Origin: a virus
Taxonomy: Duplodnaviria; Heunggongvirae; Uroviricota; Caudoviricetes
IMG/VR virus record: IMGVR_UViG_2585427756_000019
Length of the DNA stretch: 14,349 nucleotides
Strand: one strand, 5' to 3'
In this document: positions 1 to 14,349 of the stretch, one piece after another
Position numbering within the stretch: the first letter of the stretch is position 1
Layout: the number at the start of each line of letters is the position of its first letter
Notes under the pieces: model-generated
The model's database searches: none
What the model saw: only the letters and a program-made list of their open reading frames with translations
What the model was told of the DNA's origin: nothing
Position numbers and translations under genes: made by a program

Positions 1-176
1 TATACGCGCTGTATCTCTTTCTTCAGCCAGTCATCGCGCTGCGCACGGGCACTGCGTTTATCCGGATGATGTCGCTGTTGCTGACAGTGGTAATACGTTG
101 ACGGGGCAATATGCAGTTCGCTGCATAGCGGTCCGACCCCGTACTGCTCACGCAGCTTATCCAGCAGTGGCATCAT
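1..176 (-). CDS. IS3-family transposase OrfB, N-terminal part only (truncated by window edge)
   Basis: Minus-strand translation from 176 gives [58 protein letters not shown]..., a conserved IS3-family OrfB N-terminus. It is in the -1 frame overlapping the OrfA stop. Confidence 0.8.
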
Positions 177-499
177 TTTTTCCAGAGGCGGTCGAACTCC
201 GCCTTCGCAAAATAAGCGGAAGCCTGGCGAAGGATATCGTTACTGCGGCGCAGTTCACGATTTTCACGCTCCAGCTCTTTCAGACGCTGACGTTCAGCGG
301 TGGTGAGCCCTCCATCACCGCCCCCGGTATCCCGCTCATGCTGGCGAACCCAGACACGCAGAGTCTCCGGCGTACAGCCAATCTTTGGAGCAATGGAACA
401 AATTGTCGCCCATTGTGAGTCATATTCGCCCTGACTTTCCAGAACCATACGGACTGCCCGTTGACGGACTTCAGGGGAAAAACGAGTATTTTTAGTCAT
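173..499 (-). CDS. IS3-family transposase OrfA (helix-turn-helix and leucine-zipper subunit), IS629-like
   Basis: The 108-aa [59 protein letters not shown]... matches my recollection of IS629/IS1203 OrfA. It starts 5 bp inside the inverted repeat after an AGGA ribosome-binding site. Confidence 0.9.
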
Positions 500-553
500 C
501 CTGTTTACCTCTTTCTCAGGAAGTTTAGTCTCCAGGATTCCCGGGGCGGTTCA

Positions 554-1253
554 AACTGTACGTCGACTGATACAGCGGATTAACGAGATAATGATTTACG
601 CTGTAAACACTGGTCTGATTGATGCCAATCCAGCATCGGGGGTTGGGATGGCCTTTGAGAAGCCCAAAAAGCAAAACATGCCAACATTGCGGCCAGAAGA
701 ATTGCCGAAGCTGATGCGTTCTTTAGCTATGTCAAACCTATCTGTTTCGACTCGCTGTCTCATTGAATGGCAACTCCTGACACTTGTGCGTCCTTCTGAA
801 GCCTCTGGTGCTCGTTGGGCAGAGCTCGATCTTGATACAAAGCTCTGGACTATTCCGGCAGAGAGAATGAAAGCCAAACGAGAGCACATTGTTCCTTTAT
901 CACCCCAAGCTTTAGATATTTTGGAAGTGATGAAGCCCATCAGTGCTCATCGTGAACATATTTTTCCTAGCAGAAATGATCCTAAGCAATCAATGAATAG
1001 CCAAACTGCTAATGCAGCTTTAAAACGTATTGGTTTTGGAGGAAAGCTAGTTGCTCATGGCCTCCGATCTATTGCAAGTACAGCAATGAATGAAGCTGGG
1101 TTCAATGCGGATGTTATTGAAGCAGCTTTAGCTCACAGTGATAAAAATGAAGTTCGTAAAGCCTATAATCGTTCAACCTACCTGGTTCAAAGAAAAGATT
1201 TAATGAACTGGTGGGGATTATTTTGTATTAGTTCGAAGAGTGTGAATAAATGA
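554..1253 (+). pseudogene. int: P4-family tyrosine integrase, C-terminal catalytic part only; 5' part separated by the IS insertion
   Basis: The reading frame is open from the first base after the IS repeat (554) to the stop at 1251-1253. It contains the HxxR box (HGLRS) and the C-terminal VRKAYNRSTYLVQRKDLMNWW motif typical of P4-type integrases. The ATG at 591 in the ORF track is only the first in-frame Met. Confidence 0.8.
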
Positions 1254-2887
1254 ATACTTATAAGCAAACCATTAAACAAAAATCAAGATTAAACATATGG
1301 GAAACAGCTATCGCAAGGTTGACAACCCAAGCTGAGAGCTCAAGAATCTTAGAATCAAACTATTTAACAAATCTTATAGATTTTTGTTGGAAAGATACAC
1401 TAAATCAAGTTGCTATATATGATGAGAGCATTGTATTACGCAATGGTTATAATTGGGTGCAAAAAATAAGTGATAGTTATAAACCTAAAGCTGCAAGTGA
1501 ACTAAAGATTGCTTTCTTTTGCGGCCCTGAACCAGAAAATGACTTGGATATACTCTTATCATTAGATGTTAGAATAGAAAATATCTGGGCTTTTGAAATT
1601 GATAACAATTCATATAACACTGCCTTACAAAAAGCTAAAGAGTTCTATCCAAAATTAAAAATATTCCCTGGTTCTATTGGGGAGTTTTTTAAAACCACAC
1701 ATCATACCTTTGATATTATTTACCTTGATTTTACAAGTTCGTTATTGACTAAAAAGAGCCCTCCCCTTGGAGTAATAAACTCTGTATTTGACAATCAGGC
1801 CCTATCAGACTTAGGGGTGTTAATTGTAAACTCTTGCGAACCCGATGCTAACGAAGATAACGCAACATTTCTTGCAAGTTATTTCATGAATCACGAAATA
1901 ATTGAATCATCTGTAATTAACAAAACTAATGATGATGATTATGATGATAACTATGATTATTTTTCACTTTTTATTGAATCCCCCACATCACAAGGATACG
2001 ATGATATAAAGTCATTAGCAAAAGTTATAAAGACTAACATATCCGGAGCGTACTCTGCCTTTTCAACAAGTTATGTAATGCACTATGCTTCAATGATTAG
2101 TCCAACACTTCGTTTTCTACAAAATAACTCATTAAAAAGACAATTATTTAATGATAAAAAAGCTGAAGTAACTGCAACCTTTGCAGAAATTGGATCAACT
2201 GACTTTTTCAAAACATTAATATCAACAGATGGTGAAGCATCGTCCCCCTCCATTTTAGGAAACAGATTCCTAGATAATGAAAGCTACCCATTCTGGAATT
2301 TCATTGATTCATTAAATGGCTCAGGAACAAGTATTTCATCTTACTTTAAGAGCTTTTTCACCACCGCTAAAGAAGGTGTATCCATTTTAAATGCCGTGCA
2401 ATTTCGGGAATCATTTCACTCAATGCTTACAGGAGCTAGAAAGCTATTATCTCAGCGAATGCTCAATGCAATACCCCAAATAATAAAAGCAATTCCTGAT
2501 GCTAGAGGTGGTTTATTCTGTGACATTCCTTTACCCCACCTTTGGTTAGAGGTGGCACTTAATCAGTTAGGTGCACCATACCATGTAAACGTGAAAATGC
2601 ATAATCGATGGAAATATAAAGCAAAAACTCGCACAATGCATACGGACTTATTTGTTTTTGATAGATGCAGAGGTTTTTATGACTCAATGCCTATGATAGA
2701 TCAATACGAAACGATTCTTACTAACATCGAAGAACAAATTTTCGCTAGGTGTTGTATTGATATTATTGGTAAGCAATGTCGTTGGCCAACTCCAAAACTT
2801 TATTTTGGTTCGAACCTAATTGGAATAAACGAGTCTGATTGGTCTGAGTTCGCCGAACTTCGTGAAAGAGAAATTATAAAAGAATAA
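1250..2887 (+). CDS. Hypothetical 545-aa protein of unrecognised family; cargo gene in the int-cos slot of the satellite (candidate anti-phage defence protein)
   Basis: Long uninterrupted ORF whose ATG overlaps the integrase stop (ATGA at 1250-1253). Spot counts give about 22-32% GC, against clearly GC-rich backbone. The N-terminal third shows a beta-alpha alternation with FFCGPEPEND and FDIIYLDF motifs (Rossmann or methyltransferase-like, tentative). There is an acidic DDDYDDNYDYF tract mid-protein. No family assigned. Confidence 0.8.
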   Translation: MNTYKQTIKQKSRLNIWETAIARLTTQAESSRILESNYLTNLIDFCWKDTLNQVAIYDESIVLRNGYNWVQKISDSYKPKAASELKIAFFCGPEPENDLDILLSLDVRIENIWAFEIDNNSYNTALQKAKEFYPKLKIFPGSIGEFFKTTHHTFDIIYLDFTSSLLTKKSPPLGVINSVFDNQALSDLGVLIVNSCEPDANEDNATFLASYFMNHEIIESSVINKTNDDDYDDNYDYFSLFIESPTSQGYDDIKSLAKVIKTNISGAYSAFSTSYVMHYASMISPTLRFLQNNSLKRQLFNDKKAEVTATFAEIGSTDFFKTLISTDGEASSPSILGNRFLDNESYPFWNFIDSLNGSGTSISSYFKSFFTTAKEGVSILNAVQFRESFHSMLTGARKLLSQRMLNAIPQIIKAIPDARGGLFCDIPLPHLWLEVALNQLGAPYHVNVKMHNRWKYKAKTRTMHTDLFVFDRCRGFYDSMPMIDQYETILTNIEEQIFARCCIDIIGKQCRWPTPKLYFGSNLIGINESDWSEFAELREREIIKE

Positions 2888-2902: not shown

Positions 2903-2921
2903 GTGCTTTCCCCGCCTCGCC
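2903..2921. other. cos: P2/P4 cos cohesive-end sequence (19 nt)
   Basis: GTGCTTTCCCCGCCTCGCC is the exact reverse complement of the P2/P4 cohesive end GGCGAGGCGGGGAAAGCAC (recalled). It lies between the cargo gene and psu, as in P4. Confidence 0.8.
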
Positions 2922-3086: not shown

Positions 3087-3659
3087 TTACACTGACTGAC
3101 GTGATGCAAGTTGCGCACTTTTACGCGAAAAAATCATGTTCTGCGCAGGGGTGAATTTTTCACGGCTGTCATCCACCGAAGCCACGTCAGGCCTGAATCC
3201 GATGGTCGTTAAAATGTCGCTATCCTGTGCGGAATAATTAATTTTTTCACCCTTCGCAAGCCAGGACAGAAGGGCTTCACGCAGGGCATCTGTGGCACGC
3301 TGTATGGCACAGTTTCGGGCAATGGCCGTCAGCTCACTGTAGCCCATCAGCTCCGGTGCCAGTGCGGCCGCCAGTACTGTGCCGTGCTGCTGCATAAAAT
3401 CATTCAGCCGGTCGCGGATGCTGATGTGCTGAACGGCTTCATGCGAACGAATATAACGACCGGCGGCCTGATTCACCTGCCATTTTCTGACTTCGATAAT
3501 ATTGCGTAATTCGTCCAGGCGGCTGACGTTTCTGCCTTCTCCTGACAGAAGCCGCAGATATTCCTGTTCGGCCGCTGCCAGCTCATTTTTGCGTTGCAGC
3601 CATGCTGCTTTGTTATTCTGACAGGTGTCAAAGGCCTGCTGTAAGGCTGTGCTTTCCAT
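3087..3659 (-). CDS. psu: Polarity suppression protein Psu (capsid decoration / Rho antagonist), P4-like
   Basis: 190-aa ORF beginning MESTALQQAFDTCQNNKAAWLQRKNELAAAEQEYLRLL..., matching P4 Psu in length and recalled sequence. It is last in the sid-delta-psu operon. Confidence 0.9.
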   Translation of the reverse strand: MESTALQQAFDTCQNNKAAWLQRKNELAAAEQEYLRLLSGEGRNVSRLDELRNIIEVRKWQVNQAAGRYIRSHEAVQHISIRDRLNDFMQQHGTVLAAALAPELMGYSELTAIARNCAIQRATDALREALLSWLAKGEKINYSAQDSDILTTIGFRPDVASVDDSREKFTPAQNMIFSRKSAQLASRQSV

Positions 3660-3732
3660 CGTTATCTCTTTCTCATCATGCTGAAGAATAAAAATACGGT
3701 GTGCGGCGACGGCCGGGGTTAACCGGCAGCCC

Positions 3733-4233
3733 TCATTCCAGACGCAGCGAATATGATTGTGTTTTTAACCGTACTGGCGGCAGTTCCTGTTTTTCATGCA
3801 GGCGTTCTGCCAGTTCGTCCGGCGTGACCGGGCGGACAATGAAGCGGGTGATGGTCTGAAGCGTTTTAAACACCAGACCACAGTCCGGATCCGTGCACAC
3901 ATAAAAACGCTCGGTGACTTCCTGAGACAGACGCCGCGATGTTCTTGACAGCGCAAGGCCTTTACATCTCCGACAACAATATCCGGTAACAAGCATTCTT
4001 TTCGGGCGTTTCATACTGCCGGAGGCTGACGTCAGTGAATCGCGGTATCTCTGTTTGCCTGAAATGTATTCCATTCCTGAATCTTTACTGTCAGAGAAAA
4101 AGCTTTCACTCGCTTCAAATGTCGCAGAGCAATAAATATTCCGGCACTGTGCAATCATTATCTTGGTGCCATCGTCCATGAAATGTGCGCGACGGGTGTG
4201 AGCAACATGTCCACACGACGGGCAGTAAATCAT
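3733..4233 (-). CDS. delta: Delta late-gene transcriptional activator (tandem Ogr-like zinc-finger domains), P4-like
   Basis: 166 aa with two Cys-rich Ogr-type modules (MIYCPSCGHVAHTRRAH...QCRNIYCSATF and ...YCCRRCKG...YVCTDPDCGLVF). Its start overlaps the sid stop (ATGA at 4230-4233). Confidence 0.9.
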   Translation of the reverse strand: MIYCPSCGHVAHTRRAHFMDDGTKIMIAQCRNIYCSATFEASESFFSDSKDSGMEYISGKQRYRDSLTSASGSMKRPKRMLVTGYCCRRCKGLALSRTSRRLSQEVTERFYVCTDPDCGLVFKTLQTITRFIVRPVTPDELAERLHEKQELPPVRLKTQSYSLRLE

Positions 4234-4964
4234 GACAGCAGTCCTCTGGCCTTAAGCTCTGCTCCCTGCTGGTCTATTTTGTCCTGCCACACCTTGCGCT
4301 GTGCCGGTGTGCCTGCCACCTCATAATCCATGTGCGGGAGTGTTGCCGCTGACAGTCCGGTCAGCCGGAGAACCGGCTCGCCGGTGAGGCTGATTTGCAT
4401 CTGTTTAATTTTCTGTTCCAGCGATGATTTCACCTGCTGCATGACAGCTTTATCGGGTGCGACGTAGCCCTGATGGCCGGTGGTGTTGGCGAGCGGATTT
4501 TCCTGTACCAGGATACTCAGATGCATTGCCCGGACAAGCGCCTCACAGGTTTCATTCAGGGCGTGTTCCAGCTCATGCTCTGCATACAGACTCAGAAGGT
4601 GATGATGTGCCTTCCGGTAGGCGGTGGCCGTGCTGTCACACGCCCCTTTCAGGCGTTCACGTTCGAAATTCAGCACCACGGCCAGATTGTCATATTCCTG
4701 TACCAGCTCCCGGCGTGCCACGCGCTCAATGTGGCGCTGTTTCAGCTCGTCGCTCAGGACACCACCGGCTGCACGAAAGGCCGTGCGCCAGTCGTCAGCG
4801 TCGTTTCCGTTGGCCTGCGTCAGCGCATTTTTTTCCTGCTCTGCCCGTTCAATGGCCGTGATGGTCTCATCCATCAGGCGGGCGTTCTCAAGATGAGCGG
4901 CTCTGGCCTTTTCCAGTTGTGCCAGTGCGGGTTGCAGATATTCAGGGATGGTGTTGTCAGACAT
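4230..4964 (-). CDS. sid: Sid external scaffold / capsid size determination protein, P4-like
   Basis: Start assigned to the second Met (MSDNTIPEYLQPALAQLEKARAAH...), which gives 244 aa as in P4 Sid and is preceded by GAGGAG at 7-nt spacing. The upstream ATG at 4982 overlaps that ribosome-binding site. Confidence 0.9.
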   Translation of the reverse strand: MSDNTIPEYLQPALAQLEKARAAHLENARLMDETITAIERAEQEKNALTQANGNDADDWRTAFRAAGGVLSDELKQRHIERVARRELVQEYDNLAVVLNFERERLKGACDSTATAYRKAHHHLLSLYAEHELEHALNETCEALVRAMHLSILVQENPLANTTGHQGYVAPDKAVMQQVKSSLEQKIKQMQISLTGEPVLRLTGLSAATLPHMDYEVAGTPAQRKVWQDKIDQQGAELKARGLLS

Positions 4965-5516: not shown

Positions 5517-5783
5517 ATGCAAGCTGTTTTTTCTTCCCCGTCTCCCGCCCCTGTGACGCCACTGATGCCGCTGCCGGACATCACGCAGGAACGTTTTTTA
5601 CGTCTGCCGGAAGTAATGCACCTGTGCGGCCTGTCACGCTCGACCATCTATGAACTCATCCGTAAGGGGGAATTTCCGCCGCAGGTGAGTCTTGGCGGTA
5701 AAAATGTGGCCTGGCTGCACTCTGAAGTCACCGCATGGATGGCCGGGCGCATTGCCGGACGCAAACGGGGGTACGACGCATGA
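5517..5783 (+). CDS. vis: AlpA/Vis-family small DNA-binding protein (excisionase / transcriptional regulator), P4 orf88-like
   Basis: 88 aa with a GAGG ribosome-binding site 7 nt upstream. The core [47 protein letters not shown] is characteristic of the AlpA helix-turn-helix family. Confidence 0.8.
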
Positions 5784-5875
5784 TGATGCCCGCTCTGCAA
5801 AAACTCCCTTTTTCTGGCTTGCCTTTTTTCGGCATTTGCGGATATAGTTTTCCCGCTGCCGCAAAATCGGCAGCC

Positions 5876-6171
5876 GGGCGTGGAAACCCGAGCAATCTAA
5901 CGGCGACATATGACGCGCCATGCGTCTTTTTTTGTGTCGCAATCAACGCCACAGAGCGCCAGATTATGGTGTGGTGTGTGGTCAGTCGAGCAGATGGCAC
6001 TCCGTGCATCCTGCCCGCGTCCGCTCATTATGCCGCAGGGTCAATGGTAGCTCAGGCGGGGCAGCCTCCGGGCTGGCCGGTATCCGTTAGAGCCGGTATT
6101 TCCACCCCCGTCTGGGCTATCGCCATCGAGCGTGGAAACTCCGGCGATAGCGTAACCTGCTATCTAACGGA
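5876..6171 (+). ncRNA. cI: Putative P4-type RNA immunity leader (cI-like RNA region with seqA / seqB / seqC complementary elements); boundaries approximate
   Basis: Two similar segments containing CGTGGAAAC...ATCTAACGG (5876-5903 and 6129-6171) flank a segment CCGTTAGAGCCGGTATTTCCACCC (6085-6108) that is largely their reverse complement. This recalls the seqA-seqB-seqC arrangement of the P4 immunity region downstream of vis. Confidence 0.35.
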
Positions 6172-6181
6172 GGCTGCCATC

Positions 6182-6379
6182 ATGGCTACAACCCTTACCC
6201 CTTCACACCCTGAATTTGTCTTTGTGTTTGCGGCTGTCCGTCGCGCAGACCGTCATCCCCGTATCTGCATGCTTCGCACCGTCGCCGGTGATGAACGCAG
6301 TGCCCGCCGTTCCCTTGTCCGTGACTATGTGCTCTCCCTTGCTGCCCGTCTGCCGGTGGTGGAGGTGTCCCGTGCGTAA
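6182..6379 (+). CDS. Small hypothetical protein of the satellite left operon (position of P4 kil/eta); 65 aa
   Basis: ATG preceded by GGAGG at about 8 nt. The stop overlaps the start of the next ORF. The ORF-track 214-aa call (5735-6379) is an over-extension through GC-rich sequence. Confidence 0.4.
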
Positions 6380-6659
6380 TAAAAAAGCCCCTCAGACCGT
6401 CTCAGCACGTCATGACGCCCGTGAACACCTCAGCATTGAGGCTTACCATAAGCTCAACCGCGCCAGCGCCGTATCCCAGTTTGTTGGGGGTGATTTGATT
6501 CACCGTGAACTCTCCGGCCTGCATCAGCTCTACATTCCGCATATTTTCAGCTACCTGAATGAAGATATTGATTTTGTGCTGAATGAGCTGAAAGCCAAAG
6601 GCCTGTGCCGCGATTTTCTCGCCCAGCAGAAAGACCGGGGAGACAGGACGCATGTTTGA
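6372..6659 (+). CDS. Epsilon-like small protein (P4 helper-derepression protein position); 95 aa from a GTG start
   Basis: GTG start 4-5 nt after GGAGGTG. The 95-aa product ([28 protein letters not shown]...) agrees in length and position with my recollection of P4 epsilon. Its stop overlaps the next start. Confidence 0.5.
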
Positions 6660-7107
6660 TTTTCCCCAGCCCGGTGAGATTTACCGTTCTGCCGGTTTTC
6701 CCGATGTGGCCGTGGTCGGCATTCTGGAAGACGGTATTCCGTGGGAAATGCCGTACCGCTGCCCGGACATTGTCTGGAACCCGTACCGCCGTAAATTCAG
6801 TATCCTTGTGCGTATCCTCGCTGACGGGCGCACCACAGACATCCCGCTGGGGCGTTTTCTGCGGGAATTTACCTGTGACCGTCCTGACCTGTTTAAACGC
6901 AGCCCCGTAAACCGGCATGCGGTACTGAAAGAAATGGCCGGAGACCCGGAATTACAGAAATGGCGGGAGAAATATCTGGATATTTACCCGCAGGACACTG
7001 TTCCGGTCAGCCGGGCGGCACCGGTGGCGCGGGAATGGCGGGAAATTCCCCGCACGGAGCCTGACCCGGAAATCACCCCGGATAACAGTTACCGCAATTA
7101 TCTGTAA
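6652..7107 (+). CDS. Hypothetical protein, P4 orf151-like
   Basis: 151 aa, exactly the recalled P4 orf151 length. Start overlaps the upstream stop (operon coupling). Confidence 0.7.
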   Translation: MFDFPQPGEIYRSAGFPDVAVVGILEDGIPWEMPYRCPDIVWNPYRRKFSILVRILADGRTTDIPLGRFLREFTCDRPDLFKRSPVNRHAVLKEMAGDPELQKWREKYLDIYPQDTVPVSRAAPVAREWREIPRTEPDPEITPDNSYRNYL

Positions 7108-7242
7108 TTAAAAAACGACACCCGAAAAATTAAATGTGCGTATTCGCGCAGGGATACGCACGTCTTCAGGAGACGCAGATATGCCTTATCAGTTAATGCA
7201 ACCGGCACGGAATGCAGTCATCTGTCACAGGGAGGAAAACAA

Positions 7243-7563
7243 ATGAAAACACCCTTACCGCCCGTCTTACGCGCTGCCCTTTACCGTCGCGCTGTCGCCT
7301 GTGCCTGGCTGACCGTGTGCGAACGTCAGCACCGCTACCCGCATCTCACCCTTGAGTCACTGGAAGCGGCCATCGCCGCTGAGCTGGAAGGCTTTTATCT
7401 GCGCCAGCACGGTGAGGAAAAAGGGCGTCAGATAGCCTGTGCCCTGCTGGAAGATTTAATGGAATCCGGCCCCCTGAAGGCCGCGCCGTCGCTGTCCTTT
7501 CTCGGGCTGGTTGTGATGGATGAACTCTGTGCCCGTCACATAAAAGCGCCGGTACTGCACTGA
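7243..7563 (+). CDS. Hypothetical protein immediately upstream of alpha (P4 orf106-like)
   Basis: 106-aa ORF with GGGAGG ribosome-binding site about 8 nt upstream. Same strand and operon as alpha. Confidence 0.65.
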
Positions 7564-7577
7564 AGGAGAACAACACC

Positions 7578-9911
7578 ATGAAAATGAACGTAACCGCCAC
7601 CGTCAGCCATGCGCTCGGCCACTGGCCGCGTATTCTCCCGGCGCTGGGGATTCAGGTGCTGAAAAACCGTCATCAGCCCTGTCCGGTCTGTGGCGGGAGT
7701 GACCGCTTCCGTTTTGATGACAGGGAGGGGCGCGGCACCTGGTACTGCAATCAGTGTGGTGCCGGTGACGGCCTGAAACTGGTTGAAAAGGTGTTTGGTG
7801 TCTCCCCGTCCGACGCGGCCGCAAAGGTGGCTGCCGTGACCGGCAGCCTGCCCCCGGCTGACCCGGCAGTGACGGCTGCCGCCGGTGCTGAAACAGACGC
7901 TGCCCGGAAGAACGCCGCCGCACTGGCACAAACCCTGATGGCGAAAACCCGTCCCGGAACCGGTAACGCCTACCTGACCCGCAAGGGCTTTCCCGGCCGG
8001 GAATGCCGGATGCTGACCGGCACACACAGAGCCGGTGGCGTGAGCTGGCGTGCCGGTGACCTTGTGGTGCCACTGTATGACGACAGCGGCGAACTGGTTA
8101 ACCTTCAGTTAATCAGTGCTGACGGCCGTAAGCGCACCCTGAAAGGCGGACAGGTCAGGGGCACCTGTCACACCCTTGAAGGACAGAATCAGGCCGGAAA
8201 ACGTCTGTGGATAGCGGAGGGATACGCGACCGCACTTACCGTGCATCACCTGACCGGTGAAACGGTGATGGTGGCGCTTTCTTCCGTGAACCTCCTTTCT
8301 CTGGCCAGCCTTGCCCGGCAGAAGCATCCGGCCTGTCAGATTGTCCTTGCCGCAGACCGTGACCTCAGCGGTGACGGCCAGAAAAAAGCCGCCGCAGCCG
8401 CAGATGCGTGTGAAGGTGTTGTTGCCCTGCCGCCGGTCTTCGGTGACTGGAATGATGCCTTCACGCAGTACGGCGGGGAGGCCACCCGTAAGGCCATTTA
8501 CGATGCCATCCGGCCACCGGCTGAAAGCCCGTTCGACACCATGAGTGAAGCGGAGTTTTCCGCCATGAGTACCAGCGAAAAGGCCATGCGTATCTATGAG
8601 CATTACGGCGAGGCGCTCGCGGTCGATGCCAACGGCCAGCTTCTGTCCCGCTATGAAAATGGTGTCTGGAAGGTGCTGCCGCCACAGGACTTTGCCCGGA
8701 ATGTGGCCGGGCTGTTTCAGCGGCTGCGCGCGCCGTTCTCCTCCGGGAAGGTGGCCTCCGTGGTGGACACCCTGAAGCTGATTATTCCGCAGCAGGAAGC
8801 CCCCTCCCGCTGCCTGATTGGCTTTCGTAACGGCGTGCTCGACACGCAGAACGGCACGTTCCACCCGCACAGTCCGTCACACTGGATGCGTACCCTGTGC
8901 GATGTGGATTTCACCCCGCCGGTGGAAGGGGAAACGCTGGAAACCCACGCCCACGCGTTCTGGCGCTGGCTTGACCGTGCCGCCGGTGGCCGTGCGGAAA
9001 AACGCGACGTGATTCTGGCCGCACTGTTTATGGTGCTGGCAAACCGCTATGACTGGCAGCTCTTTCTGGAGGTGACCGGTCCCGGCGGCAGCGGCAAAAG
9101 TATCATGGCCGAAATAGCCACCCTGCTGGCCGGGGAGGATAACGCCACGTCGGCCACCATTGAGACGCTGGAATCCCCGCGTGAACGTGCCGCGTTAACT
9201 GGCTTCTCACTGATACGCCTGCCGGACCAGGAAAAATGGAGCGGCGACGGAGCCGGACTCAAGGCCATCACCGGCGGCGATGCAGTGTCCGTTGACCCGA
9301 AATACCGGGATGCGTACTCCACGCATATCCCGGCGGTGATTCTGGCCGTGAACAATAACCCGATGCGCTTCACCGACCGCAGCGGCGGCGTGTCACGCCG
9401 GCGGGTGATTATTCACTTCCCGGAACAGATAGCCCCGCAGGAGCGCGACCCGCAGCTTAAGGACAAAATCACCCGCGAGCTGGCGGTCATCGTGCGTCAC
9501 CTGATGCAGAAGTTCAGCGACCCGATGCTCGCCCGGTCACTGCTTCAGTCCCAGCAGAACTCAGACGAGGCACTGAACATCAAACGGGATGCCGACCCGA
9601 CGTTTGATTTTATCGGCTATCTGGAAACCCTGCCGCAGACCAGCGGCATGTATATGGGGAACGCCAGTATCATCCCGCGTAATTACCGTAAATACCTCTA
9701 TCACGCCTATCTGGCCTACATGGAGGCAAACGGCTACCGGAATGTACTCAGTCTGAAAATGTTCGGGCTGGGGCTGCCGGTGATGCTGAAGGAATACGGA
9801 CTGAATTACGAGAAGCGCCATACCAAACAGGGGATACAGACCAACCTGACACTGAAAGAGGAAAGCTACGGCGACTGGCTGCCAAAATGTGACGCCCCTG
9901 CAACAACCTGA
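7578..9911 (+). CDS. alpha: Alpha protein: bifunctional primase / SF3 helicase with C-terminal origin-binding domain, P4-like
   Basis: 777 aa, the P4 alpha length. N-terminal zinc-binding motif CPVCGGSDRFRFDDREGRGTWYCNQCG, Walker A GPGGSGKS at LEVTGPGGSGKSIMAEIA, AAGGAG ribosome-binding site upstream. Confidence 0.95.
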   Translation: MKMNVTATVSHALGHWPRILPALGIQVLKNRHQPCPVCGGSDRFRFDDREGRGTWYCNQCGAGDGLKLVEKVFGVSPSDAAAKVAAVTGSLPPADPAVTAAAGAETDAARKNAAALAQTLMAKTRPGTGNAYLTRKGFPGRECRMLTGTHRAGGVSWRAGDLVVPLYDDSGELVNLQLISADGRKRTLKGGQVRGTCHTLEGQNQAGKRLWIAEGYATALTVHHLTGETVMVALSSVNLLSLASLARQKHPACQIVLAADRDLSGDGQKKAAAAADACEGVVALPPVFGDWNDAFTQYGGEATRKAIYDAIRPPAESPFDTMSEAEFSAMSTSEKAMRIYEHYGEALAVDANGQLLSRYENGVWKVLPPQDFARNVAGLFQRLRAPFSSGKVASVVDTLKLIIPQQEAPSRCLIGFRNGVLDTQNGTFHPHSPSHWMRTLCDVDFTPPVEGETLETHAHAFWRWLDRAAGGRAEKRDVILAALFMVLANRYDWQLFLEVTGPGGSGKSIMAEIATLLAGEDNATSATIETLESPRERAALTGFSLIRLPDQEKWSGDGAGLKAITGGDAVSVDPKYRDAYSTHIPAVILAVNNNPMRFTDRSGGVSRRRVIIHFPEQIAPQERDPQLKDKITRELAVIVRHLMQKFSDPMLARSLLQSQQNSDEALNIKRDADPTFDFIGYLETLPQTSGMYMGNASIIPRNYRKYLYHAYLAYMEANGYRNVLSLKMFGLGLPVMLKEYGLNYEKRHTKQGIQTNLTLKEESYGDWLPKCDAPATT

Positions 9912-9918
9912 CCCACCT

Positions 9919-9944
9919 GACCGGCATCTGCCGGTCTTTTTTTT
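9919..9944 (+). terminator. Rho-independent terminator after alpha
   Basis: GACCGGC / GCCGGTC stem with a 4-nt loop, followed by eight T (9937-9944), starting 8 nt after the alpha stop. Confidence 0.65.
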
Positions 9945-9960
9945 ATCCCGACATCCCCCG

Positions 9961-10260
9961 AAGGTGAACAATCCAGTGTTCACCCTTCACCGTATATTCA
10001 CCCGTTATCATACTGAAATTAAAAGAGAAAAACGAAAGGTGAACAGTGTGAACAATCAAATCAAAAAAAACTTTTTTCTTCCTGAGTGATTTCAGTACGG
10101 GGGATTAATCACCGGTATGAGTCACACCGACAGAATGCCGGAGGTGAAGAATCGAATGTTCACCCTTCACCCATTATTCACCACCTATCACTCTGAAATA
10201 AAAGGAGAAAAAAGAAAGGTGAACAGTGTGAACAGTTCTTTCGAAAAAAAATTTTTTTCC
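9961..10260. repeat. crr: crr-like cis replication region: two roughly 120-bp direct repeats at 180-bp period, each with TGTTCACC / GGTGAACA iterons
   Basis: Units 9961-10082 and 10141-10260 align with high identity at an offset of exactly 180 bp. Each carries GGTGAACA, TGTTCACC, GGTGAACA and GTGTGAACA motifs. This matches the recalled P4 crr (two 120-bp repeats, 60-bp spacer) about 4.5-4.8 kb from ori. Confidence 0.7.
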
Positions 10261-10513
10261 TGTACGATATAGCATCAATCCAAGTAAAAATGCGCTTTCA
10301 TTTCACATTAACTTACAGCCATTGGTATACGATTAGGTATACGCACAAAAACTGAATTAAACAAAATCATTAAAAATCAAAGCAATACAATATTTATTCA
10401 AACTCCGCCAGCCATGATTGGACGGTGTAAGGACAACACCAACAAAAACAGGAAGTTAGAAGTCTCAGCAAAACACCGACCAGACGGTGAGGAGACATAA
10501 AAGGATACGCAAA

Positions 10514-10565
10514 GGAGCCGCGGCTCCTGGTAACATGAAAGCCCACAGATGTGGGCTTTTTCGTT
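10514..10565. terminator. Two tandem stem-loops downstream of the autotransporter stop (perfect 14-bp palindrome GGAGCCGCGGCTCC and AGCCCAC..GTGGGCT followed by TTTTT on the plus strand)
   Basis: Palindrome at 10514-10527. Hairpin at about 10540-10560 with T5 on the plus strand. Sits between convergent transcription units. Confidence 0.4.
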
Positions 10566-10570
10566 GATGG

Positions 10571-13500
10571 TCAGAACGACCAGTTCACACCAGCTACCGC
10601 GTTCCACGGGGATTCCACACCGGCACTATGGCTATACCCCACCCCAAGATGCCCGCTTAACGTACTGCTGAATGAGGCTTTAATACCTGCCTGGTATATT
10701 CCACGTCTGCCCGACAAATAATTGACGAAATTACCGTCACTATTCACTTTCACCCGGTTATCATCGACAAATTCTTTGCGCACAGCCGCCTTCAGCCACG
10801 GCTCAACTTCCATACCGTTCCCCAGACGCATGTTGTAACTCAGCGTTGCGCCCAGTTCACGATATATACTGCGGGTATCGACTGATTTCGATTTCATGCC
10901 ATTGGATAAATGATATTCGGGGTTATCAGCGGTGAACCCCGTTAACGATGCATACGGCGTCAGGTTCCAGTTACCATCGGTAAATCGCATCCCGGTTTCA
11001 ATGTGACCGCCCAGCCCGTTGCTGTGGTAACTGCCATTGGCGGCTCCACCGCTGCTCATTTTACCTGCTACGTTACTTTTAAAACGGTTCAGCTTCACGA
11101 CACCGTCCAGATAGAAACCACTTTCATGTTCCCAACTGGCATAGCCGCCCAGAGAATAACTGCCCACACTGCCATGTCCTCCGCGATCAAAACCGATATG
11201 TGAATGGGAATAGCCCATAAAAGCGCCTAGCGTGGTAATTCCTTCAGGAATATCATTACGGCTGTCGATCCCCACTGTCATTCCGGTCAGCGTCTGCTCA
11301 AACCCGGCACCCGCATCGGTGGTGACATTATTACGGGTGTTATACGTCGCCCCCCAGACATTATTGTTGTGTGGACTCGCTTTCATTATGTTCAACCGCT
11401 CGCGAATACTGTTTAGCTCAGCATCAAATACCAACGGTAATGTTGCTGCCATATTGAGTACGGCTGCCGTAGAAGGCGTAATGCGTTTCTCCGGAACGGG
11501 TGTCGGCGTTGGATCGGGAGTAGGGTCTGGTTTTGGATTTGGGTCTGGCTTTGGATCGGGTTTTGGGTCTGGCTTTGGATTTGGGATGGGGTCCGGGTTG
11601 GGTTTGACATCATTGGTCAGGTTCCAGTTGCTGTTGCCGTCACTTTTCAGGACATACTCATAGGTCCCAAGATCAACGAAACCGCCGGTATTGCCCAGCG
11701 TAAACGAAGCATCCCCTCCCCCTGTTTTCACCAGCGTCATCGCGTCGTCAGACTGTGGGCTGACGCCGGTATCCTGAACAAAGATTTTAAAATTACCAGT
11801 GGCGTTGTTGTTGACGACCAGTTGATCGCCCCGGGAGCCTGCAACGTTGGTATGCAGGTAGAAATTACCGCTACCGGAAAGTTCATTGGTTGTCAGCGTA
11901 TTGTAGATACCGTTAGTTGTGGCAGGCGCTGCTGTTTGTGCTGACAAATAAACATCACCGTCGTTGAGTAGCAAACTGTTTACTCTATATTCGCAGTTGC
12001 TGGTACCTGCACAGGAATTATTGCTGTTAAGCCAGACACTGCCCCGGCTGGCAGCCGTCAGGTCGGCAAGCGTGGTATCGACGCCATTTCCCAGAGTCAA
12101 TGTCGCGCTATCGGTAATCCGGACCGCCCCTTCGAGTTTAACTGGCGTAACATTATCCCGTGGCGTCATTAACGACAGGCTTCCTGTCGCGCCACTGACC
12201 GATGCATCCGCCAGCGTACCTGCGTAGACGATTGCCGTACCGCCAGCGACCTGGAGATCTTCTGCCCGGGCCAGAGCCTGAAACTCATCTTTTGACCGCC
12301 CAAGGGTATATTGCCCGCCAGAGTTAACCTTTGTGGCGGAGTCCTGACCCAGGTTTTGCATTGCCCCACCCTTGCCAACCGTGGAGTCGCGAGCTTCGGT
12401 ACCTGCTAATACCAATAAATTACCGCCATTTTCCAGCAACATATTGGTCGCTAAATTGCCGGAAATGGAAAAAGTACCGTACTGGTGAGTACCGCTGATT
12501 TCAATACCGTTAGCCGTGCTCGTCTGGAGAGCGGCACCGCTGTTCTGGACGATATCTGTCGCTTTGCCATTATCGTTGACTGTCAGCGTACCGCCTTCAT
12601 TGATCTTTGTTTTTATTGCCTCTCCGTTAGCTGAAACTGTTTGTATTCCGCCGTCGTTAATTGTTGTCTCATTCGCCACACCCTCGACAATTTGTTCACC
12701 GCCGGTGAGCGTCGTGCCTGTCGCAGTGGCTTTTGTTTTGACGATCTCCCGTCCGCCCATATTGACCTGTGTTTTGTCAGAAGAGGTGTCTGACTCCACG
12801 GTTAACACGCCGCCATTTGCCAGCAGGATATTGTTCGCCGCACCCTGCTCGATGCTGAACGCGACGCCATCCGCGCGTGTTCCTGTGACCCGCGTCGCCC
12901 TGGTGGTTGCAACCAAAGCGCCCTGGCTACTCTGCTGTATCCCCGTTGCGCTGCCTTTCTCCCGCACATCGAGTGTGCCGCCGTCATTAAGCACCGAGTT
13001 TTCAGCCAGACCGCCCTCATTAACTACCTGTGAACCCCCATTAATAATGGAACCTTCCGCTGTCCCGTTTGCCATAATTTGTTGTAGGCCAGAGACGATA
13101 TCGGTATTGATTGCCTTACCATAATTCTGAACGGTTTGCGTGCCACCATTGATGTGTGTTTTCTCTGTTGACCCACCATCAACAATTTGTTCACCACTTT
13201 CGATATTTGCTTCAGTGGCTAAACCATATACCGTTTGCTTGCCACCTTTGATATTTGCTTTATCAGAAGTGGCACTGGCATATATTGTTTGGGTGCCAGC
13301 ACTATTGAGTACAGTGCCAACATCTTTTCCATAAACATCCATTTTGCCGTTGGCATTAATAATCGTGTCAACTGCGCGGGAACCAGTGACGACTGTTAAT
13401 GAGCCAGCGTTTTCCAGCACTACATTTTTAGCTTCTGAATTCCTGATGTAGAAAGCATCACCATAACTGTTGGTTCCTTCGATAAGTGTTCCGGAGGTCG

Positions 13501-13718: not shown

Positions 13719-14349
13719 CTGATGAATCCCCTAATGATTTTGGTAAAAATCATTAAGTTAAGGTGGATACACATCTTGTCATATGATCAAATGGTTTCGC
13801 GAAAAATCAATAATCAGACAACAAGATGTGCGAACTCGATATTTTACACGACTCTCTTTACCAATTCTGCCCCGAATTACACTTAAAACGACTCAACAGC
13901 TTAACGTTGGCTTGCCACGCCTTACTTGACTGTAAAACTCTCACTCTTACCGAACTTGGCCGTAACCTGCCAACCAAAGCGAGAACAAAACATAACATCA
14001 AACGAATCGACCGATTGTTAGGTAATCGTCACCTCCACAAAGAGCGACTCGCTGTATACCGTTGGCATGCTAGCTTTATCTGTTCGGGCAATACGATGCC
14101 CATTGTACTTGTTGACTGGTCTGATATTCGTGAGCAAAAACGACTTATGGTATTGCGAGCTTCAGTCGCACTACACGGTCGTTCTGTTACTCTTTATGAG
14201 AAAGCGTTCCCGCTTTCAGAGCAATGTTCAAAGAAAGCTCATGACCAATTTCTAGCCGACCTTGCGAGCATTCTACCGAGTAACACCACACCGCTCATTG
14301 TCAGTGATGCTGGCTTTAAAGTGCCATGGTATAAATCCGTTGAGAAGCT
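13719..14349 (+). mobile_element. IS10 (IS4 family; Tn10-type), outside end plus 5' half of the transposase, continues past window end
   Basis: From 13719 the sequence reads CTGATGAATCCCCTAATGATTTTGGTAAAAATCATTAAG..., the IS10 terminal sequence as I recall it. Confidence 0.9.
13826..14349 (+). CDS. IS10 transposase, N-terminal part (open to window end)
   Basis: ATG at 13826 translates to MCELDILHDSLYQFCPELHLKRLNSLTLACHALLDCKTLTLTELGRNLPTKARTK..., the IS10 transposase N-terminus. Not listed in the ORF track because there is no stop in the window. Confidence 0.9.
   Translation, partial: MCELDILHDSLYQFCPELHLKRLNSLTLACHALLDCKTLTLTELGRNLPTKARTKHNIKRIDRLLGNRHLHKERLAVYRWHASFICSGNTMPIVLVDWSDIREQKRLMVLRASVALHGRSVTLYEKAFPLSEQCSKKAHDQFLADLASILPSNTTPLIVSDAGFKVPWYKSVEK

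Follow-up and report, generated by a model that had tools for sequence, protein, structure and literature searches.

The locus considered here raises a simple question: what becomes of a phage satellite, and of the gene it carries, when an insertion sequence (IS) enters its integrase gene? The window (the whole stretch of DNA that was analyzed, 14,349 bp) is the complete draft contig JOSN01000074.1 of Escherichia coli 2_222_05_S3_C2. It begins inside an IS and continues directly into the 3′ part of int, the integrase gene of a P4-like satellite, behind which lies a cargo gene. A preliminary description based on the window alone had placed an IS629-like element inside int and had proposed that the satellite is immobilized, its cargo domesticated, and the expression of this cargo possibly rewired. 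Based on comparisons with other assemblies, we consider it very probable that IS629 entered int by simple insertion, in a P4-like satellite linked to the transfer-messenger RNA (tmRNA) gene ssrA, and left this satellite stranded.

The contig is broken at both ends by IS elements, IS629 on the left and IS10 on the right, and only part of IS629 is visible in the window because the contig breaks inside it. Two genomes were used as references. OZ038772.1 (L002) is a finished 5.19-Mb chromosome whose right IS-int junction is the same as that of the window, and window coordinates are converted to this chromosome by an offset of 9410. NZ_CP098203.1 (L001) is a complete RefSeq genome with an IS-free copy of the satellite and served as the comparison reference.

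Interruption of the integrase gene

In L001, int is uninterrupted (1206 nt, 401 aa) and starts 185 bp downstream of ssrA. Positions 554–1253 of the window are 100% identical to nucleotides 507–1206 of this intact gene (L001 12012–12711). The features on both sides of the junction are as follows.

1–553, minus strand: left 553 bp of IS629, comprising the left terminal inverted repeat (IRL), all of orfA, and the first part of orfB; many copies match it at 100%.
554–556, no strand: right-hand copy of the 3-bp target-site duplication AAC, defined from both L002 junctions against the uninterrupted int in L001.
555–1253, plus strand: int 3′ fragment, codons 170–401 and stop, of a P4-type tyrosine integrase (PF00589, E 2.7e-31; NCBIfam PRK09692, positions 170–394).
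591–1253, plus strand: residual 220-aa open reading frame (ORF) from the first ATG downstream of the IS, as annotated by the gene caller; there is no earlier start codon in frame.

The 3′ fragment retains the entire Phage_integrase catalytic domain, preceded by the last part of the core-binding domain, and its stop codon lies at 1251–1253. The int frame is open without a stop beyond the IS, as the preliminary description had noted, whereas the point at which it was said to resume, position 554, needs correction. A554 serves as the last base of codon E169 and as the first base of the AAC duplication, and codon T170 begins at 555.

The order of features in L002 reveals what lies to the left, namely smpB, ssrA (7598–7960), int nucleotides 1–509 (8145–8653), IS629 (8654–9963), and int nucleotides 507–1206 (9964–10663). 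AAC is present once in the intact int and on both sides of the IS in L002. Extension to the left through L002 therewith recovers the other IS end, the duplication, and the 5′ part of int, which is displaced leftward as had been predicted, and the isolates without the IS carry the uninterrupted 401-aa int at the same site. The event is a simple transposition with a 3-bp duplication, in which no DNA was deleted.

At AC|T, the N-terminal fragment of int runs on into the IS, where 12 further codons complete an ORF of 182 aa. Exactly this int::IS fusion protein has three accessions, which bear the names E. coli 2-222-05_S3_C2 and C3, and the 220-aa C-terminal ORF has three corresponding accessions. 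Since the 182-aa fusion is on record for assemblies from the three-colony set to which the window belongs, the left junction is very likely present in the clone of the window as well.

Additionally, five assemblies, all located by exact-protein look-ups, share an identical 80-bp right junction: the window itself (L007), L002, L005, L008, and L009. They comprise three colonies from one stool sample (JOSM, JOSN, and JNQN) and two unrelated records (OZ038772.1 and CAJCTQ01). A search of the complete E. coli collection of RefSeq found the IS-int junction in none of the complete genomes, and the best five matches were IS-free; the same satellite without the IS was found at the same site in five complete RefSeq genomes.

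The int frame is also open backward into the IS as far as nt 465. A start inside the IS that would give an IS-Int fusion was considered and rejected, as no in-frame ATG, GTG, or TTG occurs between nt 465 and 591.

Identity of the insertion sequence and its host

IS3-family elements in 3717 of the 5426 complete E. coli genomes match positions 1–553 of the window, and many of these matches reach 100%. The full copy in L002 (8654–9963, 1310 bp) is covered over 1310/1310 bp, at 99.9% identity, by the “insertion sequence: IS3 family IS629” of Shiga toxin (Stx) phage records, which confirms the earlier assignment. The parts of the IS that fall within the window are as follows.

529–553, minus strand: 25-bp terminal inverted repeat IRL, TGAACCGCCCCGGGAATCCTGGAGA, last base 553, defined by comparing the two ends of the L002 copy.
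173–499, minus strand: IS629 orfA, 108 aa, helix-turn-helix part of the transposase (PF01527 HTH_Tnp_1, E 6e-13; NCBIfam transpos_IS3).
102–218, minus strand: ALIL pseudoknot (Rfam RF01497; 120.2 bits, gathering score 50), which signals the programmed −1 frameshift from orfA into orfB.
1–173, minus strand: 5′ part of IS629 orfB (DDE/rve part of the transposase), assigned from L002 orfB; the remainder lies off the contig.

In L002, orfB occupies 8696–9583 and encodes 295 aa with rve domains. The two 25-bp ends of the IS agree at 23/25 positions (TGAACCGCCCCGGG..) and are of the 5′-TG...CA-3′ type. Only IRL lies within the window, and it ends exactly at 553, where the preliminary description had put the IS3-family terminal repeat. 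Full-length identity, imperfect inverted repeats, orfA and orfB with a −1 frameshift signal, and a 3-bp target-site duplication were all found. Collectively, the designation IS629 proper, beyond merely “IS629-like,” is justified.

The presence of IS629 had been taken as a hint of an enterohemorrhagic E. coli (EHEC) background, and this hint proved misleading. The isolate belongs to sequence type 10 (ST10), phylogroup A, and serotype O15:H4, and it was sampled in April 2009 from a child <1 year of age in rural Tanzania in a study of resident E. coli (PMC6222053, Table S1). Moreover, approximately two thirds of complete E. coli genomes contain this IS family, and non-EHEC strains are among those with 100%-identical IS629 copies. 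The host is a commensal-type E. coli.

A separate observation concerns the target. Directly to the left of the duplication lies GGGGCTCTTGA, which agrees with the tip of the IS, GGGGCGGTTCA, at 8/11 positions (L001 12000–12014; L002 left flank 8639–8653). The match is inverted relative to the adjacent IS end, with the 3-bp AAC between them, and resembles the end-to-end junction of an IS3-family circle. End-like sites of this kind number only 3 in the 1206-bp int gene, both strands included. Insertion beside such a site recalls, as a single case, the target choice described for IS911.

Consequences for the integrase and for mobility

Solved structures of related integrases align with an arm-binding domain at residues 8–93 and a central core-binding domain at approximately residues 105–212, and codon 170, the insertion point, falls inside the latter. 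In the 182-aa upstream product, the arm-binding domain is followed by two thirds of the core-binding domain, and the last 12 residues come from the IS. No single polypeptide unites arm-binding, core-binding, and catalytic domains, the products being 182 aa and at most 220 aa. The preliminary description had allowed for a full-length int elsewhere in the same element; in the Pfam scan and in the gene order of the element, no second integrase was seen.

We propose that IS629 moved by the IS3-family route, in which OrfAB would be produced by −1 frameshifting and copy-out and paste-in would follow, into codon T170 of int. The target would have been a P4-like satellite already integrated just downstream of ssrA. 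IS629 would have come to lie antisense to int, with IRL (the orfA side) abutting the int 3′ part. The gene would be left in two pieces, the 182-aa N-terminal fragment and a promoter-distal catalytic-domain fragment without a start of its own at the junction. Neither piece should be able to perform site-specific recombination, and autonomous excision and reintegration would consequently be lost. All other parts of the satellite, namely cos, psu-delta-sid, the CI RNA immunity region, vis, epsilon, alpha, crr, and the arm sites, are intact and match IS-free copies exactly or nearly so; the lesion is accordingly young, and it is the sole visible defect. Excision of P4 requires Int together with Vis, and by analogy with P4 biology we strongly infer that satellite excision is lost.

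The cargo gene and its expression

The gene behind int occupies the following position.

1250–2887, plus strand: hotspot cargo gene, 545 aa, uncharacterized; its ATG overlaps the int stop codon (ATGA, 1250–1253).

Fold searches place a class I S-adenosylmethionine (SAM)-methyltransferase fold, a generic domain, at approximately residues 85–220 of the product. Sequence searches of Pfam, PADLOC, NCBIfam, and PDB gave no match, and the gene falls into no known anti-phage defense family. Table S1A of PMC9122126 includes the protein, WP_021572920, as a “hypothetical” system made up of one gene. A possible defense role is argued solely from the location in a defense hotspot. The gene itself is intact, and its DNA is identical to that of the IS-free element.

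In other strains, the same ssrA backbone carries a SIR2 gene cassette in the orientation of int, or an AAA ATPase and DUF4435 pair or a DEAD-box helicase, both opposite to int. When the int 3′ ends of these cassette variants are aligned, homology stops after the MNWWG codons, at approximately position 1216 of the window, which leaves only ~33 nt of cassette-specific DNA before the cargo ATG. Similarly, in a P4-like satellite of Rahnella, a 68%-identical homologue of the cargo begins 11 nt after int. The claim that the cargo is coupled to int is borne out by the ATGA overlap and by this short upstream DNA. Because almost no cassette-specific DNA precedes it, the cargo probably relied on transcription entering from int. 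These observations support the view that the cargo would normally be transcribed together with int or from within int.

The exchangeable cassette has its boundary inside int (~1216–1253, in comparison with L012, L013, and L014), and the last ~12 codons differ with each cassette. The length of Int among the cassette variants varies accordingly in the set 395, 398, 401, and 403 aa.

Consensus scans gave no excess of promoter-like sites, with 7 sites in the window against 7.6 in shuffled sequence and 2 sites across the whole IS and int of L002 against 3.1 expected, and they detected no promoter for the downstream int piece. Consensus terminator scans of the window and of the L002 IS likewise gave counts at or below the shuffled expectation. 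As the promoter scans fail to detect even the native int promoter, they cannot settle the expression of the cargo. The only plus-strand promoter-like site near the junction, at 563–592 (9/12), lies wholly in native int sequence.

IS3-family elements can make hybrid promoters from an outward −35 element in the right terminal inverted repeat (IRR), as established for IS911, IS2, and IS3. An IS-driven promoter for the cargo is not favored here because the IRL end faces the cargo and IRR faces away. Transcripts from the int promoter would have to cross 1.27 kb of untranslated antisense IS, which would exert a polar effect on the cargo, and we infer that this is a more likely outcome than an IS-driven promoter. 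Rewired expression of the cargo, as the preliminary description had suggested, is possible.

Alternative explanations

Several points weigh against the reading that IS629 inserted into int and stranded the satellite with its cargo. Hotspot cassettes occur in both orientations relative to int and are active with their own upstream DNA (PMC9122126), which makes an int-independent promoter conceivable. In Vibrio and Salmonella, homologues of the cargo are not associated with an integrase and stand on their own. The left junction in the window's own genome is deduced from protein records and other assemblies. Furthermore, Int could in principle come in trans from a related element, and an IS-excision enhancer (IEE) excises IS629 and can restore interrupted genes (PMC9943667, PMC9397093).

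The first three of the points on expression and context, namely cassettes found in either orientation, defense cassettes active when cloned with native upstream DNA, and homologues that stand alone in other elements, speak for an insertion without effect on the cargo. In such a case, a promoter inside the retained int 3′ part (554–1249) would serve the cargo, and the IS would affect mobility only; the weak sigma-70-like site at 563–592 would be a candidate. However, promoter-like sites are no commoner than in shuffled sequence, and co-transcribed genes typically show spacing such as the 4-nt ATGA overlap here and the 11 nt in Rahnella. Moreover, the Vibrio homologue lies in a co-directional array of small genes that reads as integron-like. 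Integron cassettes are usually promoterless. We regard an internal promoter as a serious possibility whose chance is somewhat below even.

It is less likely, and on balance improbable, that the satellite is not truly stranded. Precise IEE-promoted excision of the IS, or Int supplied in trans, would restore its movement. P4-family tyrosine integrases are normally specific for their own arm and core sites, which speaks against help in trans. When IEE promotes the excision of IS629, interrupted genes such as lacZ are restored (PMC9397093), and a frequency of >30% has been reported for IEE among E. coli assemblies (PMC9943667). As neither the duplication nor either half of int is damaged, precise excision would give the wild-type gene, and the lesion should be reversible in principle where IEE is present.

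An IS-mediated deletion or rearrangement, in which the 5′ part of int and the left attachment site (attL) were lost or relocated, beyond a mere 1.3-kb displacement, might be suspected from the single IS end in the window, given that IS629 causes deletions in O157 (PMC9943667). This is highly improbable. The L002 chromosome, with an identical junction, has int nucleotides 1–509 directly across the 1310-bp IS and the AAC duplicated, and the 182-aa fusion, possible only with that left junction, is recorded in the same colony set. Finally, an assembly artifact, that is, a chimeric repeat-induced contig end with no true IS beside int, would suit a short-read draft contig with repeats at both ends (IS629 and IS10) but has a negligible chance against an identical 80-bp junction in five assemblies, including a finished 5.19-Mb chromosome, with an exact IS terminus and a proper 3-bp duplication.

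Age and frequency of the interrupted allele

Simple insertion of IS629 into int, with loss of mobility, is the reading adopted in the following. Both int halves, the cargo gene, psu, delta, sid, vis, orf95, orf151, orf106, and alpha are identical in DNA to the L001 element, and the ash-family ORF is the only satellite gene that differs. This identity with IS-free copies, in both parts of int and in almost every other satellite gene, shows that the insertion is recent. The intact Int (exact protein) was found on 810 contigs and the 182-aa fusion on 5; the 220-aa ORF was found on 13 contigs as read, or on 6 by the cluster table. The int::IS629 allele is rare. Because the allele is rare and the rest of the element shows no further decay, the claim that the cargo was domesticated is overstated. 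“Domesticated” is too strong a word for what is a first step at most and no established domesticated island.

Related lesions were found by look-ups of the 220-aa ORF and of the cargo, the latter carried in 969 index blocks. In int, Q149* (C445T) occurs in three satellite copies (L003, L011, and L024), a +1 insertion after nt 540 in one copy (L004), a −1 deletion at nt 496 in another (L006), and a −1 deletion at nt 402 in a further one (L023). Another IS3-family IS (121-aa and 301-aa ORFs) lies between delta and sid in L018, L021, and L023, with delta cut to 148 aa. The look-up of the 220-aa ORF selects disrupted genes by construction, and single-base indels in assemblies can be errors; these copies show that lesions in int recur, with no high frequency implied. 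One additional candidate for an int frameshift, L010, was discounted, as nadK and recN are also split in it and sequencing errors are suspected.

A knock-out of int might be selectively favored, in that a promoterless cargo co-transcribed with int would be locked in place, if useful, by the loss of Int; we consider this very unlikely. The at least five independent int lesions (IS629, Q149*, and the frameshifts at nt 402, 496, and 540) would then be recurrent adaptive events and not decay, a view to which we give little credence. P4 Int is reported to autorepress the int promoter. In the point-mutation alleles, this autorepression might be relieved as well, which is a similarly far-fetched suggestion.

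The remainder of the satellite

The P4-like satellite spans the rest of the window up to ~10561, its right end being where L001 homology stops. The P4-like core set (psu, delta, sid, alpha, epsilon/ash, alpA/vis, and int) is present in conserved order, with int interrupted. The features beyond the cargo gene are as follows.

2903–2921, minus strand: P2/P4 cos cohesive-end sequence GGCGAGGCGGGGAAAGCAC, 19/19 exact match, 0.01 expected by chance.
3087–4964, minus strand: helper-exploitation operon, all intact, with psu 3087–3659, delta 3733–4233, and sid 4230–4964 (PF07455, PF04606).
5517–9911, plus strand: left operon, vis/alpA through the alpha primase-helicase (Pfam, Rfam; ORF lengths match P4), consisting of the following six genes.
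5517–5783, plus strand: vis/alpA.
5780–6379, plus strand: ash-family (Ash/Icd-like) ORF.
6372–6659, plus strand: epsilon-like ORF, 95 aa.
6652–7107, plus strand: orf151.
7243–7563, plus strand: orf106.
7578–9911, plus strand: alpha primase-helicase, 777 aa.
5842–5894, 5855–5932, and 6040–6127: P4 immunity RNA set, that is, c4-a1b1 targets, isrK, and C4/CI RNA, respectively (Rfam).
~9960–10300, no strand: crr-like direct repeat pair (~190 bp each) with TGTTCACC/GGTGAACA iterons, from sequence reading and local alignment.
10321–10343, no strand: two tandem arm-type repeats, ATTGGTATACG ATTAGGTATACG, laid out as the annotated P4 crr and attP arm repeats.

The products of psu, delta, and sid have 190, 166, and 244 aa, as in P4, and their DNA is identical to that of the IS-free element. 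The query for cos was a sequence that we take to be the P2/P4 cohesive end. A C9-TTTGC-G8 hairpin at 2920–2941 directly adjoins cos. The window and L002 have homopolymer runs of different length in it, the only indel in 11 kb, and the hairpin could act as a terminator in both directions or be a tract prone to sequencing errors. The c4-a1b1 targets, isrK, and C4/CI RNA all lie within or overlap the Ash/Icd-like ORF.

The arm-type repeats recur, direct and inverted, just upstream of int (L002 8072–8094). A comparison of the ssrA 3′ region with the DNA beyond alpha in L002 found no exact attL/attR repeat of ≥12 bp; the only border similarities were a 23-bp arm-type repeat pair and similar terminator hairpins at both borders. 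No long exact attachment-site repeat thus defines the crossover core beside the ssrA terminator. The attachment site had been expected at a transfer RNA (tRNA) gene, and the element instead adjoins the tmRNA gene ssrA. The integration site of P4 itself is tRNA-Leu.

At the right end of the contig, positions 13719–14349 are an IS10 outside end (CTGATGAATCCCCTAATGATTTTGG...) with RNA-OUT at 13764–13833 (98.8 bits). This IS10 interrupts the autotransporter gene ypjA/ehaD, which encodes 1526 aa in IS-free genomes, and ~1050 C-terminal codons are left (10571 to ~13718).

Significance and comparison with known systems

In terms of annotation, a single IS-disrupted gene accounts for both the 220-aa “phage integrase family protein” and the 182-aa “hypothetical protein” of these assemblies, each of which is one half of it. 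For satellite detection and mobility predictions, the element in these strains is best treated as non-autonomous. The allele also represents a natural int-null in an otherwise perfect P4-like satellite with IS-free twins, and the comparison could show whether a cargo directly behind int depends on the int promoter and what a stranded satellite still does to its P2 helper. It illustrates, in one lineage, an early satellite decay already described at large scale, and it has little importance beyond annotation. The locus is an ordinary instance of things already known, namely a P4-like satellite that carries a hotspot cargo, the element IS629, and the disruption of a gene by such an element.

Compared with IS629, which is catalogued in E. 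coli O157:H7 and Stx phages and has iso-forms reported as IS1203/IS3411, the element shares length, repeats, ORFs, pseudoknot, and duplication and shows no differences of its own. Only its location, the int of an ssrA-linked P4-like satellite, and its host, of ST10 and phylogroup A and not EHEC, are particular. Prophages or prophage-like elements harbor 62% of the IS629 copies in O157 (PMC3271280).

Compared with P4 (NC_001609) and the satellites of Enterobacterales (PMC8628076, PMC10085698), the gene order is the same, as are the ORF lengths (sid 244, delta 166, psu 190, orf88/vis, epsilon 95, orf151, orf106, and alpha 777 aa), and cos, crr-type repeats, arm-type repeats, and CI/C4 RNA are held in common. 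In contrast, the present satellite lies beside ssrA, its Int has 401 aa instead of 440 aa and is interrupted, and its hotspot holds a single 545-aa gene where P4 has cII-beta-gop. This hotspot has the same position beside cos as the int-psu defense hotspot of P4-like satellites (Rousset et al. 2022, PMC9122126; PMC13586616), whereas the cargo here matches no PADLOC model.

Finally, defective P4/P2 elements have been described in which mobility genes are decayed to pseudogenes and defense genes intact (PMC13586616; Bobay et al. 2014 as cited in PMC8628076), and the recurring lesions in other copies of the present satellite fit this description. The present satellite has in common with the defective P4/P2 elements a mobility gene that is knocked out beside an untouched cargo. 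It differs from them in that a single, very recent lesion affects an otherwise perfect element and in that int-disrupted alleles are a small minority.
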